Counted from the stretch's first letter, positions 53,994 through 57,157 are shown. The stretch is 64,000 bases of DNA from Escherichia coli O157:H7 (GCF_013167455.1 NZ_CP038328.1), one strand, 5' to 3'. Numbers and translations: made by a program. Notes: generated by a model from the letters alone, not told the origin.

Positions 53994-54851
53994 CAACAAC
54001 AACGCAAACACAACAACCGAGGAATGCCCATGAGTATGTCATCCATACCGTCGTCCTCCCAATCCGGGAAGCTCTATGGCTGGGTCGAAAGAATTGGTAA
54101 CAAGGTTCCCCATCCTTTTTTGCTCTTTATCTATTTGATTATCGTACTCATGGTGACGACGGCAATTTTGTCGGCCTTTGGCGTCAGTGCGAAAAACCCG
54201 ACCGATGGTACGCCGGTGGTGGTGAAAAACCTGCTCAGTGTGGAAGGATTACACTGGTTTTTACCCAATGTTATTAAAAACTTTAGCGGTTTTGCTCCAC
54301 TTGGTGCGATCCTGGCGCTGGTTTTAGGTGCCGGTCTGGCGGAGCGCGTCGGCTTACTGCCAGCACTAATGGTTAAAATGGCATCGCATGTTAATGCCCG
54401 CTACGCCAGTTATATGGTGCTGTTTATTGCTTTTTTCAGCCACATTTCTTCCGATGCGGCGTTAGTGATCATGCCACCGATGGGTGCGCTGATTTTTCTG
54501 GCGGTGGGCAGGCATCCAGTTGCAGGTTTACTGGCTGCCATTGCAGGCGTAGGTTGCGGCTTTACGGCTAATTTACTGATTGTCACAACCGACGTGTTGC
54601 TGTCGGGGATCAGCACGGAAGCGGCAGCTGCGTTCAATCCGCAAATGCACGTCAGTGTAATTGATAACTGGTATTTTATGGCCAGCTCCGTAGTCGTACT
54701 GACGATTGTTGGCGGCCTGATAACCGACAAAATCATCGAGCCACGGTTAGGTCAATGGCAGGGAAACAGCGATGAGAAACTGCAGACATTGACCAAATGA
54801 ACCGCCCCGGAAATCCTGGAGACTAAACTCCCTGAGAAAGAGGTAAACAGG

Positions 54852-55178
54852 ATGACTAAAAATACTCGTTTTTCCCCCGAAGTCCGTCAGCGGGCGATTC
54901 GTATGGTTCTGGAAAGTCAGGATGAATATGACTCACAGTGGGCGGCAATTTGTTCCATTGCCCCAAAGATTGGCTGTACGCCGGAGACTCTGCGTGTCTG
55001 GGTTCGCCAGCATGAGCGGGATACCGGGGGCGGTGATGGTGGGCTCACCAGCGCTGAACGTCAGCGTCTGAAAGAGCTGGAACGTGAAAATCGTGAACTG
55101 CGCCGCAGTAACGATATCCTTCGCCAGGCTTCCGCTTATTTTGCGAAGGCGGAGTTCGACCGCCTCTGGAAAAAATGA
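54852..55178 (+). CDS. IS3-family transposase OrfA
   Basis: [41 protein letters not shown]... HTH plus leucine-zipper region. Confidence 0.85.
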
Positions 55179-55828
55179 TGCCACTGCTGGATAAGCTGCG
55201 TGAGCAGTACGGGGTCGGACCGGTATGCAGCGAACTGCATATTGCCCCGTCAACGTATTACCATTGTCAGCAACAGCGACATCATCCGGATAAACGCAGT
55301 GCCCGTGCGCAGCACGACGACTGGCTGAAGAGAGAGATACAGCGCGTATACGATGAAAATCATCAGGTGTACGGTGTGCGTAAAGTCTGGCGTCAGTTGT
55401 TACGGGAAGGAATCAGGGTGGCCAGATGTACAGTGGCACGTCTCATGGCGGTTATGGGACTTGCCGGTGTTCTCCGGGGTAAATGGGCCCGTCGTCCGTC
55501 TGGCACCATCCATCACAGCGATAAAGGCTCTCAGTATGTGTCACTGGCCTATACGGAGCGACTAAAAGAAGCCGGATTACTGGCATCAACAGGGAGTACA
55601 GGCGACTCGTATGACAACGCGATGGCTGAGAGCATCAATGGTCTTTACAAAGCGGAGGTAATACACCGTAAGAGCTGGAAAAACCGTGCAGAAGTGGAAC
55701 TGGCCACACTAACGTGGGTGGACTGGTATAACAATCGACGATTGCTGGGAAGGCTGGGCCATACTCCTCCGGCAGAAGCAGAAAAAGCTTATTATGCTTC
55801 CATCGGAAACGATGATCTGGCAGCCTGA
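55175..55828 (+). CDS. IS3-family transposase OrfB, internally deleted
   Basis: 217 aa; retains HSDKGSQY and [11 protein letters not shown] blocks but lacks the upstream segment that should carry the first catalytic Asp. Confidence 0.7.
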
Positions 55829-56641
55829 GTTCACAGATAAAACACTCTCCAGGAAACCCGGGGCGGTTCAAAAGTCAGCGTTTTGGTTTACGCATAGCAG
55901 GTGTCGTATCGCTACTTTTTATTGCTGCGATTGCGCTGATGGTGATCCCGGAAAACGGGATATTGCGCGATCCGATTAATCACACCGTGATGCCATCACC
56001 CTTTATTAAAGGTATCGTGCCACTGATCATTCTTTTTTTCTTTGTTGTCTCGCTGGCTTATGGCATCGCTACCCGCACAATTCGACGTCAGGCGGATTTA
56101 CCGCATTTAATGATTGAACCGATGAAAGAGATGGCGGGATTTATCGTGATGGTTTTTCCCCTCGCCCAGTTTGTCGCCATGTTTAACTGGAGCAACATGG
56201 GGAAATTCATCGCCGTGGGGCTGACCGATATCCTGGAAAGTTCAGGGCTTAGCGGCATCCCGGCGTTTGTCGGTCTGGCGTTGCTTTCCTCTTTCTTATG
56301 CATGTTTATCGCCAGCGGTTCCGCAATCTGGTCGATTCTGGCCCCCATTTTCGTACCAATGTTTATGCTACTTGGCTTTCACCCGGCATTTGCGCAAATC
56401 CTCTTTCGTATTGCCGACTCATCCGTATTGCCTTTAGCGCCAGTATCTCCTTTTGTTCCACTGTTTCTTGGATTCCTGCAACGCTACAAACCAGACGCGA
56501 AACTGGGTACTTACTATTCGTTAGTCTTGCCCTATCCGCTTATCTTTTTGGTGGTATGGCTGCTGATGTTGCTGGCGTGGTATCTTGTGGGCCTGCCGAT
56601 AGGTCCGGGTATTTACCCACGTTTGTCTTAAGAGAGAACGG

Positions 56642-57157
56642 ATGCTGAGATTACTTGAAGAAAAAATTGCCACACCACTGGGTCCACTGTGGGTGATTTG
56701 CGATGAGCAATTTCGCCTGCGGGCGGTTGAATGGGAAGAGTACAGCGAACGCATGGTGCAGCTGCTGGACATCCATTATCGCAAAGAAGGCTATGAGCGC
56801 ATTTCTGCCACCAATCCAGGCGGTTTAAGCGACAAGCTTCGTGAATATTTTGCCGGTAATCTTAGCATTATTGATACGCTTCCCACTGCTACGGGGGGGA
56901 CGCCATTTCAGCGCGAAGTCTGGAAAACACTACGCACTATCCCCTGCGGGCAGGTAATGCATTACGGCGAACTGGCTGAGCAATTGGGCCGTCCTGGCGC
57001 GGCGCGTGCCGTTGGTGCGGCAAACGGATCGAATCCCATCAGCATCGTCGTACCTTGCCATCGGGTTATTGGCCGAAACGGCACCATGACCGGATATGCA
57101 GGCGGAGTTCAGCGAAAAGAGTGGTTATTGCGCCACGAAGGTTATCTTTTGCTGTAA
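56642..57157 (+). CDS. ogt: O6-methylguanine-DNA methyltransferase Ogt
   Basis: 171 aa with active-site PCHRV. Confidence 0.9.

Follow-up and report, generated by a model that had tools for sequence, protein, structure and literature searches.

The abgT gene in the 64,000-nt stretch of Escherichia coli O157:H7 DNA analysed here (the window) is a two-piece pseudogene, split by an IS629/IS1203 copy of the IS3 family that has itself lost 237 bp from its transposase gene. The insertion at abgT is already catalogued as site IS.11 of the Sakai/EDL933 lineage, and the deleted IS variant is already annotated as well; the only new detail is the occurrence of the deleted form at abgT, together with an adjacent 1-bp deletion. 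We consider it very probable that the known IS.11 insertion, which had made abgT a pseudogene, acquired the 1073-bp deleted allele by gene conversion from a copy of the type found in prophage Sp4, and that the 1-bp deletion followed. Overall, the feature is an ordinary pseudogene, with both site and allele on record.

The first-pass annotation, made from the sequence alone, had described an IS629-like element of only 1073 bp that inactivates abgT, with imperfect terminal inverted repeats and a possible 3-bp AAA target duplication. All of this was confirmed by alignment to full-length IS629 copies and by comparison with an empty site (Table 1). Outside the deletion the element shows 100% identity to full-length IS629 copies of Sakai and EDL933, with one SNP with respect to the Sakai abgT copy. 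Its terminal repeats are 25 nt long, imperfect and 88% complementary (TGAACC...GGTTCA), with the 5'-TG...CA-3' termini of the IS3 family. The 13-nt tip TGAACCGCCCCGG occurs in the window at these two places only (0.11 occurrences expected by chance), and the tip search detected no second IS629 copy in the 64 kb. In the uninterrupted abgT of strain AUSMDU00002545 the empty site reads ACCGAAAGTCAG and holds one AAA only; therefore, the AAA on either side of the IS is a genuine 3-bp target duplication, within the 3-4 bp of direct duplication typical of the IS3 family. The two reading frames of the element also follow the family arrangement: orfA and orfB lie in the 0 and -1 frames and overlap at 55175-55178, with an A6 slippery run at 55170-55175, the orfA stop at 55176-55178 and a pseudoknot downstream.

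Table 1. Features of the interrupted abgT gene and of the inserted element, in window coordinates.
Feature	Position	Strand	Evidence or remark
abgT 5' fragment, codons 1-256	54030..54797	+	PF03806 ABG_transport profile positions 1-240 of 502, E=4e-101
1-bp deletion site (G of abgT nt 766)	54794..54795	+	alignments to EDL933, FRIK1989 and intact abgT
Left target-site duplication AAA	54795..54797	.	single AAA in empty site; Rump et al. 2011 list the same for IS.11
IS629/IS1203 copy (IS3 family), 1073 bp, internal 237-bp deletion	54798..55870	+	100% identity to Sakai Sp4 copy
Left terminal inverted repeat (IRL)	54798..54822	+	inverted-repeat comparison
orfA, 108 aa, HTH_Tnp_1, intact	54852..55178	+	ORF and Pfam match
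ALIL frameshift-stimulating pseudoknot	55133..55249	+	Rfam RF01497, 121.5 bits (gathering score 50)
orfB with in-frame deletion, 217 aa (full 296)	55175..55828	+	HTH_21, D195 (HSD) and E231 kept; D136 gone
Deletion junction, between IS nt 686 and 924	55483..55484	+	GGGGTAAA joined to TGGGCCCG; alignment to full-length copies
Right terminal inverted repeat (IRR)	55846..55870	+	inverted-repeat comparison
SNP in IRR, IS nt 1297	55857	+	C in window, FRIK1989 and Sp4 copies; A in full-length abgT copies of Sakai and EDL933
Right target-site duplication AAA	55871..55873	.	single AAA in empty site
abgT 3' fragment, codons 257-508 and stop	55873..56631	+	PF03806 profile positions 253-500, E=2e-102
ogt	56642..57157	+	starts 10 bp downstream of abgT, same strand

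Annotated abgT extends over 54030-56631, so that the start of 54024 previously given for the feature has to be moved, and it is interrupted after codon 256 of the 508 codons of the intact gene. The reading frame of the 5' fragment ends at a TGA (54798-54800) formed by the opening three bases of the IS, and the frame that stops at 54800 picks up again at 55873. Instead of one uninterrupted open reading frame of about 508 aa spanning the whole PF03806 profile, the window holds two fragments that each match a part of it. The homologous stretch of FRIK1989, EDL933 and Sakai appears in RefSeq as an incomplete AbgT pseudogene. The gene order near the insertion is abgR, abgA, abgB, abgT, ogt, fnr and uspE, with abgA, abgB and abgR all intact; the IS may have a polar effect on ogt. 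AbgT is the uptake route for p-aminobenzoyl-glutamate (PABA-glutamate), and its import serves the salvage of a folate breakdown product (PMC6002978). AbgT-dependent uptake is predicted to be absent from this strain, a loss of small importance that is already present in most Sakai/EDL933-type O157:H7 strains.

With respect to the 1310-bp EDL933 copy at the same site, the window copy lacks IS nt 687-923; the loss of 237 bp, or 79 codons, keeps the frame, and no exact microhomology is present at the junction. OrfB residues 104-182 (KVRTT...LEQAL) are absent, WVADFTY with D136 among them, and the junction sits 11 residues before the HSD motif. The first-pass annotation had read OrfB as going from the N-terminal region straight to HSDKGSQY, with the first catalytic Asp region missing, and had suggested an alignment to a full-length reference; the alignment was run, maps the loss to nt 687-923 and agrees with this reading, D136 lying inside the deletion and D195 and E231 being kept. 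Since no solved structure matched full-length OrfB at E<=0.01 in a sequence search, the DDE residues were placed by the Pfam profile and the motif spacing. In the full-length protein they are D136, D195 (HSDKG) and E231, separated by 58 and 35 residues (D-58-D-35-E), which agrees with the DD(35)E pattern of the IS3 family. This pattern is documented for the family (bioRxiv 10.1101/2023.06.07.543989). In full-length OrfB the Pfam rve match scores 96.9 bits (profile positions 2-101); here it scores 29.2 bits (60-101), below the curated cut-off of 32.6 bits, and the window copy has neither the full 1310-bp length nor the complete rve (DDE) domain of IS629. The same comparison makes it virtually impossible that 1073 bp is the length of a natural full-length variant with a complete DDE triad, the counter-case raised beforehand: the 79 residues that the window copy lacks map to the rve core of the same-site 1310-bp copy, D136 included, the same-site copies of the 29 other genomes listed measure 1310 bp, and no point in favour of such a variant was found.

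With the first catalytic Asp and 79 residues of the RNase-H-like core missing, transposase activity is probably lost, and it is reasonable to regard the window copy as immobile unless a transposase is supplied in trans. Neither the two IS ends nor orfA nor the frameshift pseudoknot is damaged, and more than 10 full-length IS629 copies are present in close relatives. In an OrfAB fusion of 325 aa the DNA-binding N-terminus, the second Asp and the Glu would remain, as would the frameshift signal, and the window copy, having both ends, would at most be acted on by the transposase of full-length genomic copies. In excision assays OrfAB of IS1203v/IS629 works in trans, and DDE mutants abolish activity (bioRxiv 10.1101/2023.06.07.543989).

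The insertion itself is shared with many relatives. An abgT::IS629 arrangement with the same site, orientation and duplication is present in 93/5,426 complete E. coli genomes, and among the matches listed all 29 other abgT::IS629 genomes (29/29) carry a full-length 1310-bp copy with all three DDE residues. In Sakai the abgT pseudogene halves ECs_1917 and ECs_1920 flank an element annotated as 'IS1203 Family: IS3' (ECs_1917-1920), and the same arrangement is found in EDL933. A literature text search joining IS629 and abgT gave no match, and the site was traced by its flanks in the table of Rump et al. 2011, where backbone site IS.11 is listed with flanks CGCTGACTTT and TTTCGGTCAA, is 1310 bp long in Sakai and EDL933 and is absent from EC4115 and TW14359 (PMC3271280 suppl. 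table 2). The earlier description of a disrupted abgT and of a deletion in the IS was correct; it overlooked that the site and the variant had both been catalogued, that the copy is identical to that of Sp4 and that at abgT the deleted form is a rare, secondary one.

Base for base, the 1073 bp of the window are the IS629 of Sakai prophage Sp4, which is annotated as two 'IS1203 partial' repeat regions (ECs_1089/ECs_1090). Rump et al. list this copy as site IS.1, with a length of 1073 bp in Sakai and of 1310 bp in TW14359 (PMC3271280). An 80-nt query across the deletion junction matched at 106 places in 101/5426 complete genomes. Altogether 289 genomes have an occupied Sp4 site, which, among the matches listed, holds the deleted form in 45/60; in these matches the deleted form aligns as one piece of 1673 bp and the full-length form as two pieces over 1910 bp, TW14359 and EC4115 being full-length. 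This distribution fits a single deletion event at Sp4 in an ancestor of the Sakai/EDL933-type strains. The Sakai Sp4 copy (L003, 2986-3000 and 4074-4088) lies between ...GCGGAT and TTAATT... flanks and has no target duplication, and hybrid flank pairs, for example that of IS.26 in EDL933, are listed by Rump et al. (PMC3271280). Both features point to past recombination between IS629 copies.

At abgT the deleted form is rare. A chimeric query combining the deletion junction with the abgT flank found it among the 5426 complete genomes in FRIK1989 only, and the abgT-deleted state is present in three assemblies, namely the window, FRIK1989 and the draft contig AERQ01000013.1. The second junction of FRIK1989 is its Sp4 copy (2070259-2071331), which is identical, inverted and located about 660 kb from abgT. 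As we infer from these comparisons, the insertion at abgT is most likely an older one that was once full-length, and its deleted form arose later and in few strains. We also considered that the inverted Sp4 and abgT copies had undergone a reciprocal double crossover or an inversion, and ruled this out, FRIK1989 being deleted at both sites.

Gene conversion is the most likely origin of this state, and the order of events would be as follows. IS629 would have inserted in abgT with a 3-bp AAA duplication and produced the two-piece pseudogene; the 237-bp deletion would have arisen once, in the IS629 copy of prophage Sp4; the deleted Sp4 allele would then have been copied into the resident full-length abgT copy by non-reciprocal homologous recombination in a FRIK1989-like sublineage, and the separate 1-bp deletion beside the IS would have come afterwards. 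Two further loci show the same kind of replacement. At the Sp5 site downstream of stx2, TW14588 carries the deleted allele (L015, 2355-3427; duplication CTTT) where Sakai IS.3 is full-length, and in xis of an mlrA-integrated prophage the contig AVQT01000042.1 carries it (L009, 3624-4696; duplication CTAC) where F7349 is full-length. At either locus, site and duplication are those of the full-length copies of relatives, and IS nt 1297 is still the local A. This nucleotide alone separates two types of IS629 copies, the A-type comprising abgT of Sakai and EDL933, Sp5 of Sakai and TW14588 and the xis site, and the C-type comprising Sp4 and the window abgT copy. Because the site-specific A is retained, the Sp5 and xis copies fit in-situ conversion rather than a new insertion; a point against this reading is that all the in-situ replacement cases found come from draft assemblies, Nanopore plus Pilon assemblies or the window.

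The same SNP provides counter-evidence to conversion at abgT, since nt 1297 is the Sp4-like C in the window copy but A in abgT of Sakai and EDL933, and the scores of the other full-length abgT copies among the matches listed agree with A. To the right of a conversion tract covering nt 1297, no more than 13 bp of homology would be left. Either the tract reached that close to the IS end, or the ancestral abgT copy may have had C and this lineage may have split off before the change from C to A.

The C at nt 1297 is also what an independent insertion would leave, that is, a deleted Sp4-type element mobilised in trans by a full-length transposase and landing at the IS.11 hot-spot position and orientation, for it is the donor-type base and not the A of the full-length abgT copies. 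The deleted allele does occur elsewhere with its own duplication and no full-length partner seen, at a site of NJS001 and STEC799 (TAT; NJS001, L016, 2355-3427) and in AVQV01000012.1 (GGA; L013, 37-1108). As for the NJS001 site, a full-length occupant was not established, the apparent matches having an IS nearby with a GTA duplication. These two sites would fit mobilisation in trans, which may also occur with the deleted allele; the abgT, Sp5 and xis sites are also full-length in relatives. That OrfAB is active in trans in excision assays (bioRxiv 10.1101/2023.06.07.543989), and that the intR segment of the window is closer to a strain with intact abgT than to EDL933, would likewise favour a separate arrival. 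But the insertion shares its base position, its orientation and the AAA duplication with the 93 abgT::IS629 genomes, and because these are common to relatives a fresh insertion is unlikely here. FRIK1989 moreover has the Sp4 deletion in common with the abgT::IS629 group, arguing for common descent, and the Sp5 and xis loci, with their local SNP kept, show that in-situ change happens. Near abgT, over 43.9-64 kb, no informative backbone SNP was found that would place the window with respect to EDL933 and the intact-abgT strain.

An improbable account of the 1073-bp form is that the abgT copy is truly full length and that the Sp4 deletion was propagated onto it by mis-resolution of repeats during assembly or polishing. 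More than one deleted copy was found in three complete genomes, FRIK1989 and TW14588 among them, and these two come from one Nanopore/Flye plus Pilon pipeline; the other in-situ cases are draft assemblies; and short-read contigs end about 28 bp inside the IS, which makes them uninformative on its size. On the other side, the window, FRIK1989 and AERQ01000013.1 agree while being separate assemblies of close, non-identical strains, a G deletion and 80 prophage differences set the window apart, an IS of 1.3 kb is short enough to be spanned by Nanopore reads, and 2-3 of roughly 18 IS copies per genome are affected, not all of them. That the same 237-bp deletion recurred independently in the abgT copy by a site-specific process is very improbable, because the junction has no exact microhomology and shows not a single base of variation from locus to locus. 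Recurrence could be suggested by GGTCCGT / GGCCCGT, a weak imperfect repeat immediately to the right of the two breakpoints, and by the presence of one junction at several loci, yet both checked genomes with a secondary-site deletion (FRIK1989 and F7349) also hold the Sp4 copy. The gene-conversion origin thus remains our preferred reading.

Directly 5' of the left AAA the window has lost one G and reads GACCAAA in place of the canonical GACCGAAA. This missing G, which the first-pass annotation had overlooked while recognising the disruption by the IS, is the sole difference from FRIK1989 over 35098-64000. The same loss is found in AOEF01000081.1 and in the Logan contig SRR24147942_18, a short-read contig found in five samples. 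Since these independent contigs carry it, a read error is ruled out and the loss is real; it is a sublineage marker and a second abgT lesion. Precise excision of the IS would still leave abgT broken in this strain, given the missing G.

We also observed an abgT allele without IS in the Logan contig SRR12823537_148 (L025, 3755-3785), which reads TTGACGAAATGAGCGTTTT vs TTGACCGAAAGTCAGCGTTTT. The TGA of the left IS end is kept, and the right-hand AAAGTCA and one C are lost; the allele looks like the scar of an imprecise IS629 excision. The C loss of this contig and the G loss of the window are two different 1-bp losses in the same CCG beside the IS end, and both may be scars of abortive transposase or IEE events.

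The closest complete genome to the window is FRIK1989, to which positions 39001-64000 align in one piece with a single gap. Over the 64 kb we counted 85 differences, 80 of them clustered in prophage genes. These 80/85 (window 2014-27265) lie in the prophage tail (host-specificity J), DUF6645 and lysis-region genes, and they represent either mosaic exchange among O157:H7 lambdoid prophages, which is typical, or a mixing of paralogues during assembly. The Rac-type integrase gene intR (window 43078-43878) differs at 22 positions from EDL933, and all but one match AUSMDU00002545, in which abgT is intact; this suggests local recombination of the segment, next to a backbone that is identical elsewhere.

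We also considered a broader proposal, in which gene conversion and/or mobilisation in trans carries the deleted allele to further IS629 copies and sites, and the truncated OrfAB, in the manner of KP, inhibits IS629 transposition and IEE-dependent excision in a dominant-negative way in lineage I O157:H7. The truncated protein could inhibit because its DNA-binding and multimerisation parts are intact and its catalytic core is dead, but we regard the proposal as a whole as decidedly unlikely.

O157:H7 strains are typed with IS629 site and allele states as markers, and a small FRIK1989-like sublineage can be recognised by the deleted form at abgT with the 1-bp loss. The presence of the same deletion allele at several loci either illustrates, on a small scale, how IS copies evolve in concert or warns that repeats may be wrongly resolved in assemblies.

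In comparison with known elements, the window insertion is like IS.11 of Sakai and EDL933 in gene, base position, orientation, AAA/TTT duplication and flanking DNA, which is identical; it differs from those copies (1310 bp, A at nt 1297) in its IS length of 1073 bp, its C at nt 1297 and the missing G of abgT. To the 'partial IS629/IS1203' of Sp4 / CP-933M it is identical over 1073 bp, with the same deletion junction, whereas the Sp4 copy adjoins pchA in a lambdoid prophage and has no target duplication (GAT / TTA flanks). Non-autonomous transposon derivatives with internal deletions, such as the KP type of P elements and MITE-like IS derivatives, form what we take to be the comparable class. 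Intact ends, a defective transposase gene, autonomous copies in the same genome and presence at several loci are shared with them. Unlike the case of KP-type elements, a repressor role of the truncated IS629 protein is without support here, and, unlike KP or MITE-like derivatives, the spread of the IS629 allele at three loci resembles conversion from copy to copy rather than transposition.
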